From: Escherichia phage FFH2
Sequence record: KJ190158
Strand: one strand, 5' to 3'
Length of the DNA stretch: 64,000 nt
The position numbers and the translations under genes are program-made. The notes under the pieces are model-generated. The model did no database searches, was not told the origin of the DNA, and saw nothing but the letters and a program-made list of their open reading frames with translations. This document shows positions 1,173-56,614 of the stretch, piece by piece (positions within the stretch are counted from its first letter, which is position 1; the number at the start of each line of letters is the position of its first letter).

Positions 1173-1247
1173 GTTACTGACCTCTGTTCCAGAGCGAACA
1201 TAAAACATACGAATCCTTATAGTACAGATATTTAAGTTTTTACTGGT

Positions 1248-1598
1248 CTAACCAGTTGTTGACATTCGAATAACCTCTTCTGGTGGCAAAACTTTGGAAA
1301 ATGTACATCTTTTACCTCTCCCTTGTGTGGATATTTCAACCACTCCTGCACATTCTAAAGTTTTAACGCACGCTGCTGCTTTTGTTTTCTTTATCCCAAC
1401 ATCTGCTGCAATTTTCCTTGTGCTTGGTGTGAAGCGTGAATTTCCTCCAAGCTTATACCAGTTGTGCAGGTAGCAGTATACGATCTTGTCATATAAGTCA
1501 AGAACAACAACCTCCCCAGTTGTGTCATTCAAAACTTTTGACATAGACAGTATTTCAAGGGGGACTTTAAGATATAGCAGCTTATCCCCATCTTTCAT
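1248..1598 (-). CDS. hypothetical protein, possible DNA-binding (HTH-like segment)
   Basis: 116-aa ORF; basic segment IAADVGIKKTKAAACVKTLECAG resembles an HTH; lies next to the operator-like triplet. Confidence 0.3.
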   Translation of the reverse strand: MKDGDKLLYLKVPLEILSMSKVLNDTTGEVVVLDLYDKIVYCYLHNWYKLGGNSRFTPSTRKIAADVGIKKTKAAACVKTLECAGVVEISTQGRGKRCTFSKVLPPEEVIRMSTTG

Positions 1599-1645
1599 AT
1601 CTCCTGATTCTCCTTGTGTGGCAATTTTCTTTAAAATAGCAGGGA

Positions 1646-2200
1646 TTACTCCCCGCTGTCAATAGCAAGACTCATTGCAATACGGTATGCCTCTTCTAAT
1701 GGTAAGAGTCTCCCCCACACATCCCAACCGACATCAAACTGCCTGCCAAACAACTGCTGTGTGGTTCCGTGAGCATGACCGAACAGTTGGACTGATCCGT
1801 GAGGCTTTCTGTTCCACTTTGCAAACTGGTAATGGCTCATACAGATCAAATTCTTGTTGTGGCGAAGCTCGTAATAATCTACAACCTCATGACCGAACTC
1901 TTTCATAATTCTGACAGTCGTCCTTGTGTCATGGTTACCACGAACAAGAATAATATGTCCGTTCAACATATTTAGAACATCTGGGAGCAATTTGTTGATA
2001 TTCTTATCATTAGTGCACGCAATATCTCCCAAGTGAAACACAGTGTCTGCAGGTGACACAACAGAGTTCCACTTGGTGATGATTCCCGCATTCATACTGT
2101 CAAGATTGTGATCATACTGAGATCTGTGTTTTTGACATGAATCGAACTCCATGACCCGCTGGTGGAGAAAGTGTGTGTCGCTTGTTACAAAGTATTTCAT
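1646..2200 (-). CDS. calcineurin-like metallophosphoesterase (putative RNA 3'-phosphatase of the repair module)
   Basis: Motifs SDTHF (DxH), HLGDIA (GD), GNHD; start reassigned to ATG at 2198-2200 (MKYFVTSDTHF), 7 nt after the kinase stop. Confidence 0.7.
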   Translation of the reverse strand: MKYFVTSDTHFLHQRVMEFDSCQKHRSQYDHNLDSMNAGIITKWNSVVSPADTVFHLGDIACTNDKNINKLLPDVLNMLNGHIILVRGNHDTRTTVRIMKEFGHEVVDYYELRHNKNLICMSHYQFAKWNRKPHGSVQLFGHAHGTTQQLFGRQFDVGWDVWGRLLPLEEAYRIAMSLAIDSGE

Positions 2201-2207
2201 ACATTCC

Positions 2208-2618
2208 TCATTTAAGTTTAATGCAGTTTTTAAGCTGGCGTTCCATACGATCCACAACCCTGTCTGGAACATCATGAATGCTTTTATTACCATGGCGGTT
2301 TTCAACCACGATCACGGTATAACTATACCCATGACTGATCGCCATGTCAATATATTCTTGCACATATTTTTCTTTTGTAAACGTATTACTTACCACGATA
2401 CGGTCGTATCCCATACGCATCATATCTTCTACGTTATCTTTGCACCATTTTGCTGCAAGTGTTACTTTACTTGCATCCCAGTTATAATTTCCATCATCAT
2501 CGTACCAGAACATGTCGTTCTCAAAATGTGGATACAGACCTTCTAAAGATAGCGCATTTGCCAGTGTTGATTTGCCAGACCCTGGCAGACCACGCACGAT
2601 ATATAGCATTTTAGACAT
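2208..2618 (-). CDS. P-loop polynucleotide kinase-like protein (T4 Pnk kinase-domain-like)
   Basis: Walker A GLPGSGKST near N-terminus; start reassigned to ATG 2616-2618 with GGAGG SD 6 nt upstream; directly upstream of the phosphatase. Confidence 0.65.
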   Translation of the reverse strand: MSKMLYIVRGLPGSGKSTLANALSLEGLYPHFENDMFWYDDDGNYNWDASKVTLAAKWCKDNVEDMMRMGYDRIVVSNTFTKEKYVQEYIDMAISHGYSYTVIVVENRHGNKSIHDVPDRVVDRMERQLKNCIKLK

Positions 2619-2718
2619 AGCAATCCTCCGTTTTAATTTTAATGATAGTATACCTAACTGTTTTGTTAATTTCAAGTGTTGACACTAGGTTATTTGTGTG
2701 GCAGGATAGACTGACAAA

Positions 2719-3654
2719 ATGACAAATGAGGAACGTATGATGAAGTATTTTAATGCAGATGACCTAGTAGACAAAGGTCTTGTAACCAGTCGGTATTATC
2801 CAGATCTTGGATTAAAGATCTATAAATATGCCAGAAAAGTATTCTACAACAATCTGTGGCATTTGTCTCCGCGTTTACTGGAGTGCCGAGGTATTGTTGT
2901 TGGCAATGAGGGGAATGTTGTGGCATGGCCTTTCACAAAAGTATTCAACTTAGGAGAAAACTCCACCAATCTACCGGACAGTAAACTTGTTACTGCGGTA
3001 GAGAAAAAGAACGGATTCCTCGGTGTGGTATCATCTCATAAAGGTGAACTATTGTTCTCAACAACCGGGTCTCTTGATTCCCCATATTGTAACCTCGCAA
3101 AAGAAACCATCAGGGAGCAATGTGGTAATTTAGATCTTATCAAGAAGGTTATGGGCAATGAAAACATGACATTCATGTTTGAAATTTGCCACCCTTCAGA
3201 TCCGCATATTGTTCAGGAAGATCATGGCGCATATTTGATAGGTTGCAGATATAATGATTCTGGAATAATGCTACCAGAAGCAGCTTTAGATGGGATTGCC
3301 AAATACCTTGGTGCAAAACGTCCTCACACTGTGCGTGAAATTCCGTTCAGCTATGCAAAAGAATTAGCTGCAGAAACAAGAGGTGAAGGGTATATGATTC
3401 GTAAGCCTTACTACCCTTATGATCTGCAGCTGAAGATCAAGTCTCCATACTATCTGGCACGGAAGGCAGTAATGAGGGGTAAAGCTTGGAAGATTTGGGA
3501 TGATGATATCTTTAAACGTGTTGACGAAGAGTTTTACGGTATGGTAAAATTTATTCGTAGCAACTATACAGAAGATGTGTGGAATTGCTTATTAGAGCAG
3601 GAGCGTCGTGAGATACTGGACTACTATTTCCACAACGAGGACTATATGCAATGA
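2719..3654 (+). CDS. rnlA: RNA ligase, T4 Rnl1 (gene 63) family
   Basis: LLECRGIVV, KVFNLGENS and nucleotidyl-lysine motif VEKKNGFLGVVSS match T4 Rnl1 (ECRGIMF, KFFNLNENP, ILTKEDGSLVS) as recalled. Confidence 0.8.
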   Translation: MTNEERMMKYFNADDLVDKGLVTSRYYPDLGLKIYKYARKVFYNNLWHLSPRLLECRGIVVGNEGNVVAWPFTKVFNLGENSTNLPDSKLVTAVEKKNGFLGVVSSHKGELLFSTTGSLDSPYCNLAKETIREQCGNLDLIKKVMGNENMTFMFEICHPSDPHIVQEDHGAYLIGCRYNDSGIMLPEAALDGIAKYLGAKRPHTVREIPFSYAKELAAETRGEGYMIRKPYYPYDLQLKIKSPYYLARKAVMRGKAWKIWDDDIFKRVDEEFYGMVKFIRSNYTEDVWNCLLEQERREILDYYFHNEDYMQ

Positions 3655-4001
3655 AGAAGTGGATTGTGTGGCTTGATGATTTTAGAGATCCGTCAGATTA
3701 TGGACTCCCAGACGCTCTGTGGCTAAAGAATTCTTCTGAGTTTATGGATTTTCTTAATGATAAGAGAAAGCTCTACAGACGCGTATCTGAGTGGTATTTT
3801 GACAATGATCTAGGTGAAGTGCTTGAAGGGTACGACTGCTTCTCTGCGCTAGAGGAGAAACTTGTATTCGGAAAGCCACCACTTATTGACAACGTGATTA
3901 TTTTCGTGCATACTTCTAATCCATCGGCAGCTCGTAAATTTATGCTTGCTGCTGACTCATTCAAGAAGTTTGGAATAGAGATTAAACAAAACATCTACTG
4001 A
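3651..4001 (+). CDS. hypothetical protein (116 aa), translationally coupled between rnlA and the sirtuin
   Basis: ATGA overlap with rnlA stop; 8 nt before sirtuin start; no recognised motif. Confidence 0.45.
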   Translation: MKKWIVWLDDFRDPSDYGLPDALWLKNSSEFMDFLNDKRKLYRRVSEWYFDNDLGEVLEGYDCFSALEEKLVFGKPPLIDNVIIFVHTSNPSAARKFMLAADSFKKFGIEIKQNIY

Positions 4002-4009
4002 GGACACTT

Positions 4010-4771
4010 ATGCGACGACTGATTATTATCTCCGGTGCTGGTTTGAGCGCTGAATCTGGTATTCCCACTTTCCGATCTGGTAGCACTGCAATGTGGGAGA
4101 ATTTCAGCATCGATGAGGTGTGCAACATCCACACCTTTGCCAAGAACTACTATAAGGTGCATGACTTTTACAATGCACGTCGTGTAGCTCTGGGCAGTGT
4201 TGATCCTAACCTTGCACATCTTCGGATCGCTGAGTGGTATTCCCGCTGGTCTGGTCGTGTGATCAACCTTACCACCAATGTAGATGATTTGCTGGAGCGT
4301 GCTGGTGTAAAACATGAAGATATTTTACATGTCCACGGGTATTTGCCTGAAATCACCTACGAAGATGCTGAAGGTAATGATGTAATTAAAAATATCGGAT
4401 ACACGGAGGTAGATACAGGCAAGTATACCTGGGTTAAGCCCAATGTAGTGTTCTTCGGTGAGGTTGCTCCTAAGTATACAGACATGTATGACCTGTTGAC
4501 ATCTCTCACAAGCAATGATATGGTGATCCTAGTAGGTTGTTCTAACACAGTTATTAATTTTAACTGGGAATTGTTTCCTGCTACTTGTAAAGGCACAAAA
4601 CTGCTGATTGTAAACAAGTATGACTCGCAGAGTGCAGATGGAAGTGGCATTTCACGTAGCGACCTTTATCAATATGAGGATCGCGGGATCCCTGTATGGT
4701 TTAACGGTGCTGTTGACGCTTTCTCTGATAAAGCATTTATTGAAACTGTAGAAAACTTTATGGAACTTTAA
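4010..4771 (+). CDS. Sir2/CobB-family NAD-dependent deacylase (sirtuin)
   Basis: GAGLSAESGIPTFR, FYNARR, PNLAHL, TTNVDDLLERAG, catalytic HVHG, VVFFGE; near-collinear with E. coli CobB as recalled. Confidence 0.8.
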   Translation: MRRLIIISGAGLSAESGIPTFRSGSTAMWENFSIDEVCNIHTFAKNYYKVHDFYNARRVALGSVDPNLAHLRIAEWYSRWSGRVINLTTNVDDLLERAGVKHEDILHVHGYLPEITYEDAEGNDVIKNIGYTEVDTGKYTWVKPNVVFFGEVAPKYTDMYDLLTSLTSNDMVILVGCSNTVINFNWELFPATCKGTKLLIVNKYDSQSADGSGISRSDLYQYEDRGIPVWFNGAVDAFSDKAFIETVENFMEL

Positions 4772-4784
4772 AAGGAGACCTTTA

Positions 4785-5498
4785 ATGCTGAATACTAAAC
4801 TGATCGACAACCTGGAAAAACTGTCTCAGCCTGAAAACTACCTTTGGTCTGCCAACTGGGTGGAAAACTGGAACCGTGTGGCAGCTAAAGTGAAAAAATC
4901 ATACACACCATTCGAATTACAGCTTAGCTTCATTGAGGAAGAGTTCAATGAGGTTTTGGAAGAGCTGGAGAAAGGTGATGGTGGAGATCACCTGCTAAAA
5001 GAGGCCTGCGATCTTCACGTTGTCACAAGTTATGCCGCTTATCTTGTTAATGATAATCACGAAAAGTGGTCAAACCTGTTTGATAATCCACGAGGTCTTA
5101 AGTTCAAGATCGGTGAGTTCTATGATACACTGATCGCTGCGAAAAACACATCCAAGCAAAGAGCGTCAGCTTACCGCTTAGCGGAGTTGTCAACAGCTTT
5201 GCTGTTCCAGCTTCGCGGCGATGTGTGTGGGATGATGCGGAAGGTTCTCAAATCGAATGACAGCAAGTTTGCACGGGTCAACCATCTACGGTATTCACAC
5301 GGTGCCAGTGCAGATATGCCTGCTGAACAACTCATCGAGTTGGAGATTAAAGATCTTGAGCGACGCTTTGATGGTCGATATGAAGGTTTTGTTGCTAAGG
5401 AAGAATTCTACAACGGTAATAAAGTTATCATATTCCTTGACAGTAAAGGTAAGATCATGAAGCCTTCAAGCTTCAAGGATGTAACAGAGTATATTTAA
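4785..5498 (+). CDS. hypothetical protein, possible MazG-like all-alpha NTP pyrophosphohydrolase
   Basis: Acidic EEEFNEVLEELEKGDGGDHLLKEACDL segment resembles the MazG/HisE E-x-x-E ... D motif; weak. Confidence 0.3.
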   Translation: MLNTKLIDNLEKLSQPENYLWSANWVENWNRVAAKVKKSYTPFELQLSFIEEEFNEVLEELEKGDGGDHLLKEACDLHVVTSYAAYLVNDNHEKWSNLFDNPRGLKFKIGEFYDTLIAAKNTSKQRASAYRLAELSTALLFQLRGDVCGMMRKVLKSNDSKFARVNHLRYSHGASADMPAEQLIELEIKDLERRFDGRYEGFVAKEEFYNGNKVIIFLDSKGKIMKPSSFKDVTEYI

Positions 5499-5538
5499 CA
5501 ACATAGCCGGGGATCACCCGGCTTTACTTGTTGTACAA

Positions 5539-5862: not shown

Positions 5863-6118
5863 TCTTGCTAAACCTGTAGAAGCACACCAGTTTGATGGAA
5901 GCTCTTCATCAGTATCTGATCTGCAACGGTGGATTGATACAGGTGTGTTTACATCGTCACCTGTTCGGACCAGAGATATTCGTCGCATGTGTGAGCTTGT
6001 CGAGCCGTTTGGTAACCTGGTCTTGTACCAGGGAGATTGGTTAGTTGACTTTATGGGAGACTGGTTGGTAATGAGTAAAGAAGAGATGTTTAACATTTTT
6101 AAGGAAGAGGCCGAGTAA
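5849..6118 (+). CDS. hypothetical protein (89 aa)
   Basis: Co-oriented ORF; stop overlaps ligase start. Confidence 0.35.
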   Translation: MPLFNLAKPVEAHQFDGSSSSVSDLQRWIDTGVFTSSPVRTRDIRRMCELVEPFGNLVLYQGDWLVDFMGDWLVMSKEEMFNIFKEEAE

Positions 6119-7401
6119 TGCATCAGATCAAAACAACACTGTACGCACTGAACAAAGATGGCAGCTACCAACAGTGGAAAGTATTCACGGATGGTGATAA
6201 GGTTATCGTAGAGTTTGGCAAGCTTGATGGTAAACTGCAATACAAAGAGACGATCTGCACACCTAAGAACGTGGGTCGCGCCAATGAAACTACAGCTGAG
6301 CAACAGGCCGAGCTGGAAGCGATCAGTAAGTGGGAAAAACAGGTCCGACTCGGGTACGTGGAGAGTATGGAAGATTGTGAGCAAGGTGTTGATCTTTTAC
6401 CCATGTTGGTGCATGACTACCTGAAGCGTGGCAAGGCACTTAAATTACCTTGCTGGATCTTGCGTAAGTTAGATGGCCTTCGTCTACTTGTTGTTTTCCA
6501 GAATGGTGAGCCTAAATTTATTTCCCGTGGTAATAAGTCCTACCCTATTCAAGGGAAGCTTCTGGAGCAACTTCGCTCTTTCCACCTAACCACCGGGATT
6601 AAACAGCTCGACGGAGAGCTCTATATTCATGGTCTGCCTCTGCAGAAAATAGTGTCTCTTGCTAAACGGTGGCGCACACAGGAAGAAATTCAGGCCGAGA
6701 TCGATAAAGACTACAAGGCAGATAAAAAACGCCGTCAGGCTGCTATTAAAGCAGGTTTAGCAACATACAAAAACTTCAACAAGATGGACATTCCTGTTGA
6801 TGTTGAGCCTGTTCGTGATGATTTGCGTTACGGAGGGTACTGCAGCTACGACTTAGAGTATCATATTTTCGATATTCCTAGCGATAAGGTGTGGTGGGAT
6901 CCTGAAACAGAGTCTGGACGCTGTAAGGATCTTATGGAGGCAAATGGTGCTATTGCTTCTTTGATGCTTGATCATATTAAGGTTGTTGATGCAGAGCTTG
7001 CATACACAGTTGATCGGTGCGAAGAGTCTGTTGGTATATTTATGTCTGAGGGATATGAAGGTACCATTATGCGTAACTTCTGTGGTAAATATGAGTATGG
7101 TCAGCGAACATCTGAAGCATTGAAATGGAAAAAGTTCAACGACGCAGAGGTGAAAGTTATTGACGTTGAGAAAGATAAGAATGATGAAGGTGTTCTTATC
7201 TGTGTTGACAAGGAAGGTGTTATTGTTAAAATGAAGATGAAAGGCACGCACGAGGAGCGTAGCTATGACAGGATGCAGGAAATGATCGGCAAGTTTGTCA
7301 CCTTCAAATATCAATCAAGGACAGAAGACAACAACTACCAATTCCCTGTCGGTATCTGCGTCCGAAATGTTAACCCAGACACTTGGGAGGTGCTGGAATA
7401 A
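6118..7401 (+). CDS. ATP-dependent DNA ligase
   Basis: Motif I KxDGxR (RKLDGLR), motif III (QLDGELY), motif IV (EGTIMRN), motif V (KWKKF). Confidence 0.75.
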   Translation: MHQIKTTLYALNKDGSYQQWKVFTDGDKVIVEFGKLDGKLQYKETICTPKNVGRANETTAEQQAELEAISKWEKQVRLGYVESMEDCEQGVDLLPMLVHDYLKRGKALKLPCWILRKLDGLRLLVVFQNGEPKFISRGNKSYPIQGKLLEQLRSFHLTTGIKQLDGELYIHGLPLQKIVSLAKRWRTQEEIQAEIDKDYKADKKRRQAAIKAGLATYKNFNKMDIPVDVEPVRDDLRYGGYCSYDLEYHIFDIPSDKVWWDPETESGRCKDLMEANGAIASLMLDHIKVVDAELAYTVDRCEESVGIFMSEGYEGTIMRNFCGKYEYGQRTSEALKWKKFNDAEVKVIDVEKDKNDEGVLICVDKEGVIVKMKMKGTHEERSYDRMQEMIGKFVTFKYQSRTEDNNYQFPVGICVRNVNPDTWEVLE

Positions 7402-7543: not shown

Positions 7544-8014
7544 ATGAAACTTGATAAAAATGTTCAACGAAAGGCTTTCTTGGATATGATCGCATATTCG
7601 GAAGGCACAGATAATGGTAGACAACCTACCAAGGATCGGGGATACGATGTCATAGTCGGAGGCAAGCTGTTCAGCGATTACAGCAAGCATCCCGGTGTTT
7701 ACGTTAAGCTAAATGCTAAACTTACCTCCTCCGCTGCTGGGCGTTACCAGGTTTTGGAGAAGTTTGCTAAACACTACATGGAACAGTTAGGATTGCCAGA
7801 TTTTGGCCCTGCCAGTCAGGACAAGATTGCGTTGCAACTGATCCGTGAGTGCAAGGCTCTCGCCGACATTGACGAAGGGCGTATCCACGAGGCTATCCAT
7901 AAATGCCGTTCCCGCTGGGCTTCGTTGCCTGGTGCTGGATATGGTCAGCATGAACAGAAGATTGAGAAGTTGATCGAGGTGTTTAAAAAGGCAGGCGGTG
8001 TTGTCCTTGATTGA
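7544..8014 (+). CDS. endolysin, lambda R-like lytic transglycosylase
   Basis: QRKAFLDMIAYSEGTDNGRQ...GYDVIVGG...AGRYQ...WASLPGAGYGQ is near-collinear with lambda R as recalled. Confidence 0.85.
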   Translation: MKLDKNVQRKAFLDMIAYSEGTDNGRQPTKDRGYDVIVGGKLFSDYSKHPGVYVKLNAKLTSSAAGRYQVLEKFAKHYMEQLGLPDFGPASQDKIALQLIRECKALADIDEGRIHEAIHKCRSRWASLPGAGYGQHEQKIEKLIEVFKKAGGVVLD

Positions 8015-14716: not shown

Positions 14717-15330
14717 TGGATATTATTGTTCTTAACGCCCCACCCAGCAGTGGTAAGGATCACATTGCAGATCTCTTGTTGGAAGCTATTCCTAACTCAC
14801 ACCACCGCGAGGTTAAGGAGATGCTCTTTAGTGTGGCAATTAAGGCAGCTGGTGTAACTCCTCAACTCTGGAATGCACTTTATGACCGCCACTACAAAGA
14901 AGAGCCTTGCCCTTTCTTAATGATAGACGGCAAGCATGTTTCTCCGCGAGAATGGATGATCCATTGTAGTGAAAATCTGATTAAACCTATCTTTGGTGAA
15001 GATGCTTTCGGTAAAGCCGCAGTCGCATCTTTGAAGAAAGATTTCCCTAAAGGTAAAGGGGTTGTTGTTTACTCCGATGGTGGATTCAAAGAGGAGCTGG
15101 CATGCCTTAGCGAGTACGCATACAGCACAGGTGGAGATCTGTTGTTGTTCCGTATTCACCGTGTCGGATATGACTGGGGAAATGATTCCAGAACCTATCT
15201 AAGTCTGGAAAAGAACGGAATAAAAGGAATTGAGTTTGATGTTGTAAACCCTGAAGGTGCACCTTGGGAATGTGCATCGGAGATTGTGTGCAAGTATATT
15301 GATGCTAAAGAGGCCCAAGAAGAATGTTAA
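14713..15330 (+). CDS. deoxynucleoside monophosphate kinase-like P-loop protein
   Basis: N-terminal IIVLNAPPSSGKDHIADLL resembles the T4 gp1 dNMP kinase P-loop (SGKD..AD). Confidence 0.5.
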   Translation: MMDIIVLNAPPSSGKDHIADLLLEAIPNSHHREVKEMLFSVAIKAAGVTPQLWNALYDRHYKEEPCPFLMIDGKHVSPREWMIHCSENLIKPIFGEDAFGKAAVASLKKDFPKGKGVVVYSDGGFKEELACLSEYAYSTGGDLLLFRIHRVGYDWGNDSRTYLSLEKNGIKGIEFDVVNPEGAPWECASEIVCKYIDAKEAQEEC

Positions 15331-15917
15331 TCGGAATTGATGTAGATTTGACACTGGTAGATTCAGGAACAGCATGGTGGGAGTGGTTGGAGCGTTTGTA
15401 TGGTCCAGCCAGTAAGACAGTCGCTAAACCTTCTAATGGACTGATGTATTACGATCTGTCAAAGTATTGGCCTGATCGCCCCAAAGAAAACATCATAGGG
15501 CCTTTTGATTTCTGGAGTGACCCATTCCTCTACGACTTTCTTAAGCCTGAAGAGGGGGCTATTGAGGTTATGAAAGATTTGGTGGCTCGTGGTCACAAGC
15601 TTGCATTTATCTCGGTATGCAAGAAAGGTCACCTTGCATCTAAATCAAGGTTCTTAAAGCGTTGGACCAGTGATTTTATGGATCTGGACGATCACACCCA
15701 GGGTCACGGCTTCTACGCCACACATTTCAAAGGAAATGTGGCTGTAGATGTTATAATTGACGACAGGCATGAATACCTTAACCAATTCGCTTCACGACCT
15801 GAAGTTATTAAAATCCTAAAAGATACGCCTTATGAGCAATTCGAGGAGTTAAAGGTCAGTGTTGACTATACCGCTAATAGTTGGTATAAAATAGGAAAGT
15901 TTTTAGAAGGTATTTGA
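15324..15917 (+). CDS. HAD-superfamily phosphatase (putative 5'-deoxynucleotidase)
   Basis: N-terminal DxDxT motif (GIDVDLTLVD). Confidence 0.45.
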   Translation: MLIGIDVDLTLVDSGTAWWEWLERLYGPASKTVAKPSNGLMYYDLSKYWPDRPKENIIGPFDFWSDPFLYDFLKPEEGAIEVMKDLVARGHKLAFISVCKKGHLASKSRFLKRWTSDFMDLDDHTQGHGFYATHFKGNVAVDVIIDDRHEYLNQFASRPEVIKILKDTPYEQFEELKVSVDYTANSWYKIGKFLEGI

Positions 15918-37783: not shown

Positions 37784-38047
37784 ATGAACATCCTGATGTG
37801 GGTTATAGCAGTGGCGTTTGTTGCATGTTTTTGCTGCTGGGTTGCGGTGAGGATTTCTGTAGCTACCCTTCGGAAGTTGGGGTTCTCAGAATGGGATATT
37901 AATATCCTTTCTTTTCGCAATGAAACAATCTCAGCCGCCCTGCTTTGTAAGAAATTTAAGTGGGAACCTTGTGAGGTCATGAGCTATCTAAGAACAGGCG
38001 ATATCCCTGAAAGATTTAAAAAAGTTCTTGACGGCAAGGATAAATGA
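37784..38047 (+). CDS. small membrane protein (87 aa)
   Basis: N-terminal transmembrane helix. Confidence 0.35.
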   Translation: MNILMWVIAVAFVACFCCWVAVRISVATLRKLGFSEWDINILSFRNETISAALLCKKFKWEPCEVMSYLRTGDIPERFKKVLDGKDK

Positions 38048-38202
38048 CAGTATAGTGACTAACAAGAGGTGAGGGGTGACTGATTTTACTGAAGCTTTAA
38101 TGATGGCCTTGTCTGTTTTAGCGCTATCGGTGTGTTTTGGGGCGTTATTCACATCTCTGGTTAAAGTTTTACATACAGTATTATTACCCAAGGAGCGCAG
38201 TA

Positions 38203-38454
38203 ATGACGAAGATTGACTTGAATGCTGGTGATCATGTTGTTGTCAAATGCATTGGAGATTATCTTGGATTCACAATCGGCAATACTTACGAGGCGGTAGT
38301 GGCGAAGGTTTATCATGATAAAGTCCTCAGTCTTGTATTTGACTGTGATGATGACGGAGATGACCGTTACGTCTGTGAGGTGCTGGCTCGTGACGATAGT
38401 GAAGACCAGAAATTCCTGGTTATTGAACTGAACGGTATTTTTGTAGAACGTTAA
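38203..38454 (+). CDS. small acidic protein (83 aa)
   Basis: Start reassigned to ATG 38203 with AGGAG SD. Confidence 0.4.
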   Translation: MTKIDLNAGDHVVVKCIGDYLGFTIGNTYEAVVAKVYHDKVLSLVFDCDDDGDDRYVCEVLARDDSEDQKFLVIELNGIFVER

Positions 38455-38482
38455 TTTAAAACAACATAAGGAGACTCTTACT

Positions 38483-38788
38483 ATGGCTAAATCTAAAGTT
38501 GAACTGTTCACCTCTCTTCCTTCTGACACTGCAGAGCGTGATCGCCTTCGCAAAACAATCGAAGAACTGGTGGAACTCCAACTTCAGATTAAAGATCTGA
38601 AAGATGCCATTAAGGATATCATTCTCGTTGAGAAGCAGGATCACCTGTATTCTCCTAAATTCATCAAATCTCTGGTTGCTACCGAGTTTGATATTCGCTA
38701 TGAGGCTGAAAAACGTCGAGCTAAAATCGAAGAAGAGGTTGAGCACATGTCCGAGGCAGACATTCTGTTCAAACGCTCTGTAGAATAA
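38483..38788 (+). CDS. hypothetical coiled-coil protein (101 aa)
   Basis: ORF with AGGAGA SD. Confidence 0.4.
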   Translation: MAKSKVELFTSLPSDTAERDRLRKTIEELVELQLQIKDLKDAIKDIILVEKQDHLYSPKFIKSLVATEFDIRYEAEKRRAKIEEEVEHMSEADILFKRSVE

Positions 38789-38793
38789 TGACA

Positions 38794-38822
38794 AAGAGGG
38801 GGGCTTGGGCCCCTCTTTTTAC
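38794..38822 (+). terminator. intrinsic terminator (GAGGGGC ttgg GCCCCTC + TTTTT)
   Basis: Read directly. Confidence 0.6.
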
Positions 38823-38843
38823 TATCTATGGAGGAGATTTAAG

Positions 38844-39176
38844 ATGGGTATACCGATCACTGTAAAAGAATTGAATGAACGTGATGCAGGTGGTCTATGG
38901 CCTGCACGAAAAATACGCTGCATCCGTATGAAAGAGAACCTTGAGCATCTTGAGCAACAGAAACGGATTGAGGTTGGCGATATTTTCGAAGTATTTTATT
39001 CTGATCGCCGTAACTGGGAAACCATTCAACCTTCCGGTTTTGTTCTTGCTAAGCTTGACACTGGAGAAGTGATTGTTCCTGGGTTGGATATTGTCTTCGA
39101 AATTATACAGGAGTGGGATCCGGACAAGATTAGATACGAAGAGCTATTCGGTGAAGGTATTATCAAACCTGTGTGA
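38844..39176 (+). CDS. hypothetical protein (about 110 aa)
   Basis: Start reassigned to ATG 38844 with GGAGG SD. Confidence 0.4.
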   Translation: MGIPITVKELNERDAGGLWPARKIRCIRMKENLEHLEQQKRIEVGDIFEVFYSDRRNWETIQPSGFVLAKLDTGEVIVPGLDIVFEIIQEWDPDKIRYEELFGEGIIKPV

Positions 39177-39484
39177 GGTGGATTATGTCTACAAAGGCGG
39201 CTAAATACTCCTATATGCCATCAACCTCTGCAGAGGTAGACTTTAGTTTCGATGTGTTTCCACTGTTTGAGGTGGTTCTGGCATACCCAACAATACTATC
39301 TACTCCTGAATCACTTGTGCCTGTTAAGTTGCAGAACGCTATGCATTACATGCACTACAACAACAAATGTAGGCACAGATGGTGTCAGGACGAGGAAAAA
39401 GATTTGGATAGTTTGAGAGATTTTGACAGTCACCTTTTGACACCTTTCAGCTACTCCAACCTTGATAAGCCCTCGTGGGTATAG
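39173..39484 (+). CDS. hypothetical protein (103 aa)
   Basis: Overlapping start/stop. Confidence 0.35.
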   Translation: MRWIMSTKAAKYSYMPSTSAEVDFSFDVFPLFEVVLAYPTILSTPESLVPVKLQNAMHYMHYNNKCRHRWCQDEEKDLDSLRDFDSHLLTPFSYSNLDKPSWV

Positions 39485-39506
39485 CAAAATATCAAATTTA
39501 AGACAC

Positions 39507-39535
39507 CTAGGACGCTCTGTGGCGTCCTTTTCTTT
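39507..39535 (+). terminator. intrinsic terminator (GGACGC tctgtg GCGTCC + TTTTCTTT)
   Basis: Read directly. Confidence 0.6.
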
Positions 39536-39844
39536 ATCTGGTGCACGATTGCATACCTTGGGTAGTTAATCTCATTACAGAGCGTTTAAGAGCTCCCTAC
39601 AAACAACTCCATATTTCGAGCGTAGCGAGAACGCACGTCCGTTTTGACCCAAATCACCATACGCTCGGATTTTAACCAAACCCTCGCGGCGTTTCTGTGG
39701 ACACATTACCGATCCAGTGATAGTATCCACACATAGTTTGTAGAATATGGAGTACACAATGAGAACATTGTCCGAAGTTTTAGTGGTGATCCTGATGATC
39801 ATTACGTCCATAGCGGCTGTTGCCGGAATACTCACGGGTGGAAC

Positions 39845-40057
39845 ATGATCAACACACATGCATCTGAAGAGACATCCGAAGGAGTTACCATCTGTCCCTT
39901 GGCTGAGCCAGTGAAAGAGGAAAACTTCGATTCTGAAGATTATCCATCTCCGTCCCAGGTAGATCCTGAGGCTGATGACCTAACGTGGGAAGACATCGTA
40001 GATATCTGGTTCTCTATTATGCCTGAGCACGAAGAGTTCAGGGGTGGTAGACTATGA
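39845..40057 (+). CDS. small acidic protein (70 aa)
   Basis: Start overlaps (ATGA) the stop of a 33-aa hydrophobic mini-ORF at about 39749-39850. Confidence 0.35.
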   Translation: MINTHASEETSEGVTICPLAEPVKEENFDSEDYPSPSQVDPEADDLTWEDIVDIWFSIMPEHEEFRGGRL

Positions 40058-40176
40058 AGCACCGAGCCCACACAGGTTCCTCATACTAAAGCATGGCCTG
40101 AAGAGGCAAACGTGCATAATTCCTGCGCATTTGGACGTATAATCCTGTTCACACTCTCATTTCCAGAGGAGATTTT

Positions 40177-40392
40177 ATGAAGATAGAAATATTTGGTGGA
40201 GCTGACAACACTCGTGGCCTGATTTACCTTGAATTTGATGAATCATACCTGCCAGAGGTGTTAAATATAGACTCTGTTGCTGAGGCTTTGGGAGTAAACC
40301 CTAAAGAACTCCACTCTTGTGCTGAGATCGATGGTTGGGAAGAGACCATGAACATTGATTTCAGTGAAGTAGAGGATGAACCGCTGGACTGA
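40177..40392 (+). CDS. small acidic protein (71 aa; MKIEIFG N-terminus)
   Basis: GGAGA SD; last gene of the rightward block. Confidence 0.4.
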   Translation: MKIEIFGGADNTRGLIYLEFDESYLPEVLNIDSVAEALGVNPKELHSCAEIDGWEETMNIDFSEVEDEPLD

Positions 40393-42805
40393 CACACAAT
40401 TAGCTGCCCGGCTAAAGTGCTGGAAGCACCTATAACACATCTTTCAACTAAATTTCCTACCACCACAATCACTTACCTCCCACACATGACTGTTTGCTTG
40501 TTTAGTGAGCAGTCATGCCTTGACATTCTTGCCTATCCTGATAAAATTAAGTTCTTCTCTTTTCTTTTACCGAGTAATTCGGGTTTTCTGTTCTCTTCGG
40601 TTTGAAGGGGTATAGAGATACACCTGAGTGAACAGGGTGAACAACCGAACATTTGGCTATGGCATTAGCATGGCGAAGCGGACGGGTGACGAAAGAGGGG
40701 CCGGAGGACACCAGTCACTGCCATATGATATATGGGTGATAACCTGAAGAGTCTGAATAAGTGTTTAAGTACCAGTCAGAGGAAAAGGTGAATGGTAGCC
40801 GAAGGGGGAGGGGGGTTTCTTGTATCTTTAATTTGTATATTATGTATACACTTGTAAACCAATCTCATCTGAATTTGTTTACCACACAAAGTGGATAGGG
40901 ACAAATATTACCTATTAAACTTGAATTATTTATAGAAATACCACAACACCACTTAAGTCTTTGATTTTACACACAAATCCTACAGATATTCACCCTCCAT
41001 ATTTAACATACCTGTAACATATTCCATACCCTACCTGACCGATCAATTCACCCAACTACATCCCCATATTTTCCCTGTCTGTACTACCCCTGCCCCGCCG
41101 GGAGTCCCGTCATATCTGGCTTTCCAGCAAATATCACACCCACAAATATCATTGCCTGAAGAGGGTTTCATCCCATAATACATGCCTTACCTGAAGAGCG
41201 CTTCATACACCACGTAAATTTTTTAATTGACCCCCTCCCCGCCGCCGGAGAGGTTGGCTTTTCCCACACAGACCTGAAGAGTCAGCCAGAAATATCTGAA
41301 CAGGTCCAGCTATGCCACGATTTTGTGCTTGTCCTACAGGAGTGCCTCCCTGTCAGGAGCCGGTAGCGACTGGAGTGCTGCCAGGCGGACGAAATGGGAA
41401 TCATTCTCATTCTTATAACAATTCTCAAATATCGAGGCAGTGAGGCAAATTAATAGGTGAGGCCGTTCACACAATGGCACAACATTTGCAACCTATCTTG
41501 TGGGAGTGAATGAGAATACCTATCATTGTGAGAATAGTTATCATTACGGGCAATTTAACATAATACCCATTATGCGCACCACTGGCGATCCATACAGGGA
41601 TTGATAACATGGGTTACTGTTTACACACATAACAATTATATTTCTTACTATTTGTGTGGGATATAGTTAGCAGCCGATAGATTAGATATTGACCTGTAGA
41701 CTTCCAACCGTCCAGACGTCTAAACGCCCACACAACAAGGGTTATACATACACAACTGAATGTAAACAGGGCCGCAAAAATGCTACCATACAAGCTTGTA
41801 AATTTTTCATGCAGCACTTGACAAAGAGGAGGAAAACTTGTCTGACACTTTAGACACAATAGTGACATAATATGACATAATGGTGACACTGAACATAATT
41901 GACATGCCTGACTGTTTACATAGCTAACTATTCATACAGAAATGATAAGCCATGCCATTCGTTTGCATGATAATAATTAACTTGTTTACAATAGATGACA
42001 TAATATAAAAGCAGGGCAACTATTAGAAGATCTATAGTTGCCTTGCTTGTTATGTCATGATTAACTAAATACAAGGCAACTATGATCTGATTAATAGTTT
42101 GCAGACAAACTATCACGGGGGTGATGGTTACTGCTTTTATATTATGTCGCGACTCCGTCGCGCCATGCCATTCGTTTGCATAGTTGCCTTATTGTTACAG
42201 ATAAAATAATTGTATTGTTAATTATTTCTTATCTTTCTCTTAGTCATCTAATGATTCCAGTCAGTATAGTAATGTACAGTAAACATTAGACGACTAAAGA
42301 TTTCTCTGTTTATTATAACTTACCGTGACAATTTCAGGCTGTTTACGAAAAATGTTGACACCTGGGCCGATTTATGTTATGCAGTTTACACGAATAATTA
42401 TTTTATGCAGGTATTGACTATTCCGTTATTCTATGGTTGGAATAAATACTTAGCAGACTATAGAATGGTGAGCGTACGTAAATTCTGAGATCTGGCGGCT
42501 ATAGTTATACTCGATTTTTCACGTAGAACACGCTTTTGTTAGTGTGTAAGTGTATGACTTATAAAGATTTTTAGTTGTTGACAAGATATTGAAGATGTGC
42601 ATCAGGTTAAATTTTGTGCAATAGCGGCATTACGTGCAATTTTGAGAGAGAAAACGGGTAAAAATGGCCTTGCTATCACACAATGAAAAATTATGCAATA
42701 GTTATTTTACATGTATGTTTGTACAGTGTGTGGGATTGATGGCTAGTCAATTATTCCACTTGCCAGGCTGGGCCGTTTGTGGTAGGAGAAATACAGACAA
42801 AAAGA

Positions 42806-56074: not shown

Positions 56075-56614
56075 TCAACACTTTTTGTACTCCACCACGA
56101 TAATATCCATATCAAAAGTGGCAAGGTTAATAACGTCCTCTACGTGCTCCCACTTCAAACCGCCTATGCCGCACCCGATCTTAGGGATGTAGAATGGTAA
56201 AGTCGATCCACTGAATACCTCATTGACTAGCTCAAAGCCTTTCAGGATTGAGAAATATTCAGCATTAGGTCCTGGGTAGAACTGAGTATACAGATTGATT
56301 CCGTAGACAATACCTCTCGGAGATAAGTGCTCCCATCGGGAGAACGCACCCAGTTTACTTAGGCAACCATGTCTGGTCTCTTTGTCAGCTGCCAATGCTT
56401 GAGGGAACTCACGGGCAATCTGTTTTGCTATCCCCTTGCCCATTGTGTGGAAGCAGTTACAACCGTGGATCAGGTGACCAGCACCACTCTTAAAAAGGGA
56501 GATTAAATCTCCCTCTACAGTATCAATAATCACGGTATGCCAGCTCCTCTTCCACAATTTCAAAAAACTCATCCCAACCTTGTGGCATATTTGAGTTACC
56601 GAAGTGGCTTTCAT
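56075..56614 (-). CDS. macro-domain protein, Poa1p-like (ADP-ribose derivative phosphatase/hydrolase family)
   Basis: HGCNCFHTMGKGIAKQIAREFP and IPKIGCGIGGLKW match the Poa1p-like macro signatures (N-C ... MG.GIA and GCG.GGL.W); start uncertain (possible GTG near 56533). Confidence 0.65.
   Translation of the reverse strand: MKATSVTQICHKVGMSFLKLWKRSWHTVIIDTVEGDLISLFKSGAGHLIHGCNCFHTMGKGIAKQIAREFPQALAADKETRHGCLSKLGAFSRWEHLSPRGIVYGINLYTQFYPGPNAEYFSILKGFELVNEVFSGSTLPFYIPKIGCGIGGLKWEHVEDVINLATFDMDIIVVEYKKC

Follow-up and report, generated by a model that had tools for sequence, protein, structure and literature searches.

Organisation of the cassette

The DNA analysed here is a 64,000-nucleotide stretch of Escherichia phage FFH2 (sequence record KJ190158), referred to as a whole as the window; close to its start lies a cassette of six genes, at the core of which the genes for a phosphoesterase and a polynucleotide kinase (PNK)-like protein, on the minus strand, point away from that for an RNA ligase on the plus strand. 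We regard it as probable, on the sequence-based evidence below, that the cassette is a phage-encoded RNA end-healing and sealing system that mends tRNAs cut by host defence nucleases. The open reading frames (ORFs), and the hairpin that follows them, are:

1646–2200, minus strand, 184 residues: predicted stand-alone binuclear metallophosphoesterase; candidate 2′,3′-cyclic-phosphate / 3′(2′)-phosphate end-healing enzyme
2208–2618, minus strand, 136 residues: predicted minimal PNK-like P-loop 5′-kinase
2719–3654, plus strand, 311 residues from 2719, probably 305 residues from the ATG at 2737: predicted short, ATP-dependent RNA ligase of the Rnl1 clade
3651–4001, plus strand: cREC, a cyclic-phosphate-processing receiver-like protein, translationally coupled to the ligase
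4010–4771, plus strand: class III-like sirtuin (Sir2; Pfam SIR2) without zinc-binding cysteines
4785–5498, plus strand, 237 residues: MazG-like homologue of nucleotide pyrophosphohydrolases (weak assignment)
5505–5523: GC-rich hairpin, terminator-like on both strands, with a 7-bp stem containing six GC pairs and a T-rich tail 3′ on the plus strand (pattern match only)

The phosphoesterase and kinase ORFs are 7 nt apart (2201–2207), each with a GGAGG or GAGGA ribosome-binding site, and the kinase and ligase genes diverge across a 100-nt intergenic region. The ATG at 2737 is more likely to be the true start of the ligase than that at 2719, because it has a GAGG Shine–Dalgarno sequence 5 nt upstream and agrees with the N-termini of homologues and with the annotation of phage EmilHeitz; no Shine–Dalgarno sequence precedes the ATG at 2719. 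The ligase stop and cREC start codons overlap by 4 nt (ATGA, 3651–3654), gaps of 8 nt and 13 nt separate cREC from Sir2 and Sir2 from the MazG-like gene, respectively, and the hairpin ends the ligase–cREC–Sir2–MazG unit.

A preliminary description, made from the letters of the window alone, had given these coordinates and strands for the triad, together with the 7-nt gap, and all are as claimed; the same gene models are annotated in phages EmilHeitz and rV5. That description placed the limits of the module at 1646–3654; the triad is indeed present there, but the unit runs on through the cREC, Sir2 and MazG-like genes to the hairpin. Its three family assignments were borne out by Pfam matches above the gathering scores (phosphoesterase, Metallophos_2 at 1.7e-6 and Metallophos at 4.1e-6; kinase, AAA_33 at 2.7e-10; ligase, RNA_lig_T4_1 at 9.3e-15), as well as by the conserved motifs and family profiles described below.

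A megablast search with bases 1200–5500 matched 120 phage records, all of them rV5-like Vequintavirus genomes, and 116 of these matched with at least 80% query coverage and more than 90% identity. The window is 98–99% identical to published genomes of this group, and phage V5 is 97.8% identical to it across the cassette genes. The trio is annotated as 'putative phosphoresterase', 'polynucleotide kinase' and 'RNA ligase' in EmilHeitz, and as 'phosphoesterase', 'ATPase' and 'RNA ligase 1 and tail attachment protein' in rV5. The gene arrangement is not a product of chance: it is kept in the 116 phage records and recurs in distant viral contigs. The closest records (99.0% identity; MG065654, MG065666, MG065676 and others) are unannotated, named 'Campylobacter phage' and assigned Campylobacter jejuni as host; because they are essentially identical to rV5-like phages of E. 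coli, this suggests either a mislabelled host or a contaminating phage in the deposits.

Linkage of the triad across viral loci

The strongest functional evidence for the cassette is the linkage of its genes, which was surveyed from two sides. The ligase-side survey covered 80 diverse viral contigs with ligases 35–89% identical, falling into 41 clusters at 70% ligase identity, and the kinase-side survey covered 80 viral loci with kinase homologues of 43–51% identity. Kinase–phosphoesterase–ligase linkage recurs in distantly related viral contigs, at 35–50% protein identity. From the ligase side, a kinase gene was found in 74 of the 80 loci (92%), at a median gap of 117 nt, and in 42 of the 43 loci with full flanks; a phosphoesterase gene was found in 62 (78%), at a median gap of 315 nt. 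Among the 41 non-redundant ligase clusters the kinase is present in 37, the phosphoesterase in 35 (85%) and both in 33, whilst cREC occurs in six and Sir2 and MazG in four each (10–15%). Since kinase and phosphoesterase genes lie near the ligase in most loci, the heal-and-seal triad is the conserved core of the cassette, to which the sirtuin block has been added in a particular lineage. The suggestion in the preliminary description that the three proteins work together on broken RNA gains support from this tight linkage in 33 of 41 clusters.

On the kinase side, 57 loci (71%) include the phosphoesterase and 46 an RNA ligase of any type. The ligase is of the Rnl1 type in 28 loci, and in 19 it is of a second, unrelated type composed of a PHA02142 OB-fold domain and a PF09414 RNA_ligase domain with the motif KIHGTN (loci listed with this ligase: L005, L012, L020–L022, L024, L050, L052, L058, L059, L061, L066–L068 and L082); both types occur together in one locus only. 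That one ligase type takes the place of another beside this kinase suggests that what they have in common is RNA sealing. Other neighbours of the kinase are Nudix (25 loci), cREC (21), MazG (4) and Sir2 (3) genes. For this cassette, the structure of the genes, the families to which their products belong, the conservation of catalytic residues and of linkage, and the similarities in fold are direct observations.

Clusters of tRNA genes lie within 10 kb of the kinase in 13 of 60 kinase loci. In rV5 and EmilHeitz such a cluster is found approximately 1.3–1.8 kb to the left of the window start, on the kinase strand (locus L001, 1–512; locus L002, 159–629), with Tyr and Arg tRNAs common to both, Lys in EmilHeitz and Ser in rV5; neither a tRNA gene nor an Rfam family was found in the window itself. 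The proximity of this cluster to the cassette raises the prospect that the phage may combine replacement tRNAs with repair.

The kinase

Searches of the PDB with the single kinase or ligase sequence returned nothing useful, and family profiles and structural models were required. The best PDB matches of a 35-sequence kinase family profile include Pnkp1, T4 polynucleotide kinase, C. thermocellum Pnk and PSTK, and the fold is nearer to known polynucleotide kinases than to other P-loop kinases. The preliminary description had left it possible that this protein was a generic AAA/ATPase; by profile comparison with T4 Pnk (hhalign probability 96.4%, E 1.3e-9, against the T4 kinase domain) it is not. 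In this alignment K16, S17 and D35 pair with K15, S16 and the catalytic D35 of the T4 enzyme; the P-loop, GxxGxGK(S/T), spans G10–T18, and D35 is invariant across 35 homologues. Near-invariant R108, which aligns with T4 R122, may serve as the lid arginine.

The protein consists of the kinase domain only and has no HAD (DxDxT) 3′-phosphatase domain, so that kinase and phosphatase are, as first proposed, separate proteins: a 136-residue kinase-only ORF and a phosphoesterase with an ORF of its own. A T4-type Pnkp was sought in the rV5 annotation, and none is present in the parts examined, which left out 50–62 kb and 121–138 kb. Judged by its motifs, the kinase belongs to a separate clade of minimal PNK-like kinases and is not an orthologue of T4 Pnkp. 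Homologues were found in 620 phage isolates, and those of the phosphoesterase in 1352. The sole HAD-like protein seen in the window is a 5′-deoxynucleotidase of the NT5C type (15324–15917; HAD fold), which lies among nucleotide-metabolism genes and is not of the Pnkp type.

The RNA ligase

The ligase matches Pfam PF09511 (RNA_lig_T4_1) with 55.5 bits, above a gathering score of 28.3, and when its family profile was run against the whole PDB, T4 Rnl1 was the only match (1.8e-12; hhalign against T4 Rnl1, 97.5%). Ten residues align with counterparts in the T4 enzyme and are invariant across 38 homologues: R57, K74, F76, K96 and G99 (T4 R54, K75, F77, K99 and G102), and E155, E223, G224, K239 and K241 (T4 E159, E227, G228, K240 and K242). 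These include the KxxG of motif I (K96/G99) and motifs III, IV and V. The T4 residues, among them the N-terminal R54, K75 and F77, are reportedly essential, as found by mutagenesis in the Shuman laboratory. Alignments with T4 Rnl1 end at about residue 247. An AF2 model of the ligase (pLDDT 90.8) was compared with known structures by Foldseek, which ranked the ligase domains of fungal Trl1 (E 4e-12) and T4 Rnl1 (6e-12) as a tie, with Rnl3 enzymes next.

The ligase is a member of the Rnl1 clade, in a short subfamily, and is predicted to have sealing activity. Its earlier designation as 'T4-type' is accurate as to the Rnl1 clade; it does not extend to the details, the protein being equally near to Trl1 and having neither an equivalent of T4 K119 nor a T4-like C-terminal domain.

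Gene fusions were also considered. The 737-residue family phrog_8238, with an N-terminal match to the kinase and a C-terminal match to the ligase, was dropped as a candidate kinase–ligase fusion, and is not counted as evidence of one, because the kinase match, at 1.3e-5, is weak and the spacing agrees with a T4-type Pnkp–Rnl1 fusion. The top 120 homologues of each of the kinase, ligase and phosphoesterase include no multi-domain architectures, so there is no fusion (Rosetta-stone) support for the triad.

The phosphoesterase

The phosphoesterase belongs to phrog_547 (5e-51). All five motifs of the calcineurin-like binuclear metallophosphoesterase superfamily (DxH, GD, GNH(D/E), H and GHxH) are present, in addition to the Pfam matches above threshold; the corresponding residues, D8xH10, G58-D59, G88-N89-H90-D91, H123 and G141-H142-x-H144, are invariant or nearly so among 31–58 homologues. 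The family profile, searched against all PDB sequences at E ≤ 0.1, matched Aquifex aq_1665, 6UNC, phosphohydrolases of the GpdQ type and YfcE.

The preliminary description had likened this protein to the calcineurin-type phosphatase of bacterial Pnkp. The superfamily motifs agree with that comparison, but the likeness holds at superfamily level only, because the profile reaches neither the Clostridium thermocellum enzyme (CthPnkp) nor lambda phosphatase.

The cREC, sirtuin and MazG-like proteins

The cREC protein matches Pfam cREC_REC PF20274 (9.1e-14; 52.3 bits, cut-off 27), and its acidic motifs, LDD (D9, D10) and DxDLG (D51, D53), are conserved in a small alignment of six sequences. The cRec family was defined, and its linkage to RNA ligases noted, by Iyer et al. 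2021 (PMC7824862); its catalytic role is a prediction only (PMC7824862, PMC9503650). The sirtuin matches Pfam SIR2 at 6.9e-28, and its closest solved relative is E. coli CobB (1S5P, 3.2e-21). It keeps the GAGxS, TxNxD and HG motifs (NAD-binding residues and catalytic His), has no Cys in the stretch that lies opposite the zinc-binding cysteines of CobB in the alignment, and falls far under every cut-off of the NCBIfam deacylase models; its synteny is kept in relatives of approximately 147 kb. No Pfam, NCBIfam or PDB sequence match was obtained for the MazG-like protein, whose name is weak because it rests on one PHROG match (phrog_671, 5.4e-22) and on the RefSeq annotation of rV5 as a nucleotide pyrophosphohydrolase.

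These three genes suggest that the 2′/3′ end may be processed by a further or alternative route linked to NAD. A more specific version, tentative and rather doubtful, is that the zinc-less sirtuin might be an RNA 2′-phosphotransferase, taking the role of Tpt1/KptA with an unrelated fold, and cREC a new metal-independent 2′,3′-cyclic phosphodiesterase, which would give rV5-like phages, beside the metallophosphoesterase route, a full tRNA repair pathway in the style of Trl1/Tpt1 whose components are not homologous to those enzymes. This proposal for the sirtuin and cREC was already made by Iyer et al. 2022 (PMC9503650).

Some 50 kb from the cassette, on the minus strand (56075–56533), a Macro-domain protein resembling Tk.4 is encoded (Pfam Macro, 28.3 bits, cut-off 22). 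Its substrate could be ADP-ribose phosphate or O-acyl-ADP-ribose produced by the sirtuin, and it fits an ADP-ribose-processing network.

Proposed mechanism and alternatives

In the mechanism that we favour, a host ribotoxin or anticodon nuclease would cut a tRNA, of host or phage, to leave 2′,3′-cyclic phosphate and 5′-OH ends. The 136-residue kinase would then phosphorylate the 5′-OH, whilst the binuclear metallophosphoesterase, possibly together with cREC, would open and remove the cyclic or terminal phosphate to give a 3′-OH; the short Rnl1-type ligase, adenylylated on K96, would reseal the break. In the rV5 lineage, cREC, the zinc-less sirtuin and the MazG-like enzyme would plausibly add an NAD-linked route for 2′-phosphate ends, or clear ADP-ribose by-products. 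Inferred here are which substrates are used, in what order the steps run, how phosphoesterase and cREC share the work, what the sirtuin does and what the biological target is. On this scheme the triad may be regarded as a split analogue of T4 Pnkp and Rnl1.

Several observations weigh against so direct a reading. In the kinase, W38, aromatic throughout the family, stands at the site of the essential Arg38 of T4, which contacts the 3′-phosphate of the 5′-terminal nucleotide; the position of the T4 lid arginine R126 is variable in the family (K112 here), with the lid Arg offset, and the family has invariant motifs of its own (R9, W58-C59 and ENRHG..H115). In the ligase, Thr116, part of a family-invariant TTG, occupies the position of T4 Lys119, the C-terminus is a helical tail or short helical bundle of approximately 65 residues and not the T4 C-terminal domain (residues ~255–374), and the score against the NCBIfam equivalog model of T4 RnlA (TIGR02308) is 37.6 bits, where the cut-off is 242. 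The sole close solved relative of the phosphoesterase, Aquifex aq_1665 (1XM7, 7e-16), is a structural-genomics protein of unknown function, and neither CthPnkp nor lambda phosphatase was detected in the profile search of the PDB at E ≤ 0.1; its family is, moreover, wider than that of the kinase (1352 versus 620 phage records), so that other substrates are possible. Neither partner lies nearby in 14 of the 80 kinase loci, and the literature searched yielded no biochemical or genetic test of any protein of the cassette.

The alternative that survives best, unlikely as we judge it, takes an NAD-dependent route similar to that of Trl1 and Tpt1 as the principal one, with the phosphoesterase peripheral. 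Here cREC would open the cyclic phosphate to a 2′-phosphate, and the kinase and ligase would seal the break, leaving a 2′-phosphate at the junction or end; the sirtuin would then move this phosphate to NAD in the manner of Tpt1/KptA, and MazG, cREC or the phosphoesterase would clear the ADP-ribose cyclic phosphate. The operon order ligase–cREC–Sir2–MazG, with its coupled start and short gaps, is consistent with such a route, as are the NAD-binding and catalytic His motifs retained by Sir2 and the equal structural nearness of the ligase to T4 Rnl1 and to the ligase domain of fungal Trl1, which requires a 2′-phosphate; the Macro-domain gene at 56075–56533 could handle the ADP-ribose phosphate products, and the route was explicitly proposed by Iyer et al. 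2022 (PMC9503650). Against it, sirtuin, cREC and MazG genes are present in only 4–6 of the 41 non-redundant ligase clusters, compared with 35 for the phosphoesterase, and a set of accessory genes so rare among the clusters means that most cassettes must complete repair without NAD chemistry. We know of no sirtuin with RNA 2′-phosphotransferase activity, and a search of the literature found none, which also counts against the route, as does the purely predictive basis of the role given to cREC.

It is somewhat more improbable that the kinase, phosphoesterase, cREC, Sir2 and MazG proteins act on small nucleotides or NAD-derived signals, by degrading or modifying the second messengers of host immunity or NAD metabolites, rather than on RNA ends, and that the ligase is near them incidentally. 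By structure and by profile alike, the kinase best matches polynucleotide and tRNA kinases; seen from the ligase side the linkage is near-universal, and two unrelated types of RNA ligase interchange beside the kinase. Nor did the cassette proteins match a PADLOC or counter-defence family, PADLOC returning weak P-loop matches only.

We consider it highly improbable that the cassette heals DNA ends (3′-phosphate and 5′-OH) for an ATP-dependent DNA ligase, as mammalian PNKP does. T4 Pnkp acts on DNA too, an ATP-dependent DNA ligase is encoded 620 nt downstream (6118–7401), and the phosphoesterase weakly matches the NCBIfam model of the ligase-associated PdeM (E 2.4e-4); but the latter score, 20.6, is far under the cut-off of 150, the ligase that adjoins the kinase is of the Rnl1 clade, and a DNA ligase homologue lies close to the kinase in no more than 6 of 80 loci, compared with 46 of 80 for an RNA ligase. 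Least credible of all is the notion that the Rnl1 homologue is mainly a catalyst of tail-fibre attachment, the second activity of T4 gp63, with unrelated neighbours: annotations such as 'RNA ligase and tail fiber protein attachment catalyst' favour it by homology only, and against them stand the position of the gene amid non-structural genes (transcription regulator, DNA ligase, nucleotide metabolism) rather than tail genes, the sigma-70-type promoter that rV5 annotates just 5′ of the kinase–phosphoesterase pair, the linkage of end-healing enzymes in nearly all relatives and the conservation of all the nucleotidyl-transfer residues.

Promoter-like sites and other features of the window

Two sigma-70-like promoters, each found as a consensus match only, lie on the minus strand:

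2322–2350, minus strand: TTGACA-17-TATAGT (11/12), within the kinase ORF and directed toward the phosphoesterase gene
2647–2675, minus strand: TTGAAA-17-TATACT (10/12), in the divergent intergenic region, 5′ of the kinase

The first is the top-scoring site of the promoter scan, and rV5 annotates P80 at the same position. The same scan gave no convincing plus-strand sigma-70 promoter for the ligase.

To the left of the cassette, a GC-rich island (750–950; 57% GC, genome 42%) adjoins an AT-rich segment (1000–1100; 22% GC) in a 640-nt gap between longer ORFs, and the folding of bases 700–990 is, on both strands, more stable than that of shuffled controls (z −2.8 and −2.9). The region 700–1100 has no Rfam match, and relatives annotate tiny hypothetical ORFs only; it may encode a structured RNA or have a regulatory role. 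Downstream of the cassette, the DNA ligase gene is followed by one for an endolysin (7544–8014). Cumulative GC skew reaches a maximum near 38–40 kb and then declines, matching the switch from plus- to minus-strand genes in the rV5 annotation (38000–42000).

Relation to known repair systems

The cassette is already known as a prediction, being annotated in relatives and discussed in print with phage V5 as a prototype. The sirtuin-centred phage RNA-repair neighbourhood of type 2, with Escherichia phage V5 and Proteus phage Mydo as prototypes, comprises a T4-like tRNA ligase, cREC, a nucleotide kinase, a sirtuin, a MazG pyrophosphatase and a calcineurin-like phosphoesterase, the sirtuin having been proposed to act like KptA/Tpt1 on 2′-phosphates (Iyer, Burroughs, Anantharaman & Aravind 2022, Viruses 14:1977, PMC9503650). 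This is the same locus as that described here, all six genes lying within 1646–5498. Whereas that account puts the sirtuin at the centre and calls the phosphoesterase 'occasional' (PMC9503650), our counts reverse the emphasis, with the phosphoesterase in 85% of clusters and the sirtuin, cREC and MazG in 10–15%. That calcineurin-like phosphatases can stand in for HAD phosphatases in some phages has also been noted (PMC7824862).

A 2025 paper on Pseudomonas phage Adele (Pakpunavirus) describes a stand-alone putative polynucleotide 5′-kinase without a phosphatase domain, together with two RNA ligases, and reads them as tRNA repair (PMC12846349). As in the window, a stand-alone kinase lacking a 3′-phosphatase domain there adjoins an RNA ligase, but no sirtuin, cREC or MazG is described and a second type of ligase is present. 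Pseudomonas phages of about 90 kb encode homologues of both the kinase and the phosphoesterase of the window.

T4 Pnkp and Rnl1 reverse the cleavage of tRNA-Lys by PrrC. The cassette shares with them the logic of a 5′-kinase, a 3′-end phosphoesterase and an Rnl1-clade ligase, along with the kinase fold, the catalytic Asp and the nucleotidyl-transferase residues. It differs in that the kinase is a stand-alone protein of 136 residues that lacks both a HAD phosphatase domain and a counterpart of Arg38, the phosphatase is a binuclear metalloenzyme with a gene of its own, and the ligase is approximately 65 residues shorter than T4 Rnl1, without the K119 equivalent and the T4-like C-terminal domain. 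In the bacterial systems, C. thermocellum Pnkp (with Hen1) and Capnocytophaga Pnkp1–Rnl–Hen1, the modules are fused in one polypeptide and have a Hen1 methyltransferase partner, whereas the genes of the window are separate, no Hen1 is seen among them, and the phosphoesterase is common to the two only in its superfamily motifs. The fungal and plant system of Trl1 (ligase–kinase–cyclic phosphodiesterase, CPDase) and Tpt1 resembles the cassette in that the ligase model is as near to Trl1 as to T4 Rnl1, and the NAD-using sirtuin and predicted cyclic phosphodiesterase cREC of the operon parallel CPDase and Tpt1; cREC and the sirtuin are, however, unrelated in fold to the 2H CPDase and Tpt1, their activities are predicted, and all the proteins are separate.

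Significance

Defences that cut tRNA, including PrrC, RloC, PARIS and retron/PtuAB, are a major barrier to phages, and T4 Pnkp/Rnl1 is, to our knowledge, the only answer to tRNA cutting that has been worked out biochemically. The cassette described here appears to be a second, widespread solution, composed of a minimal kinase, a metallophosphoesterase from an uncharacterised clade and a short Rnl1. Its presence in phages of the BASEL collection, which plate on E. coli K-12 and are amenable to genetics, makes for an easy experimental test, and the accessory genes for cREC and the sirtuin could bring to light new chemistry at RNA ends.

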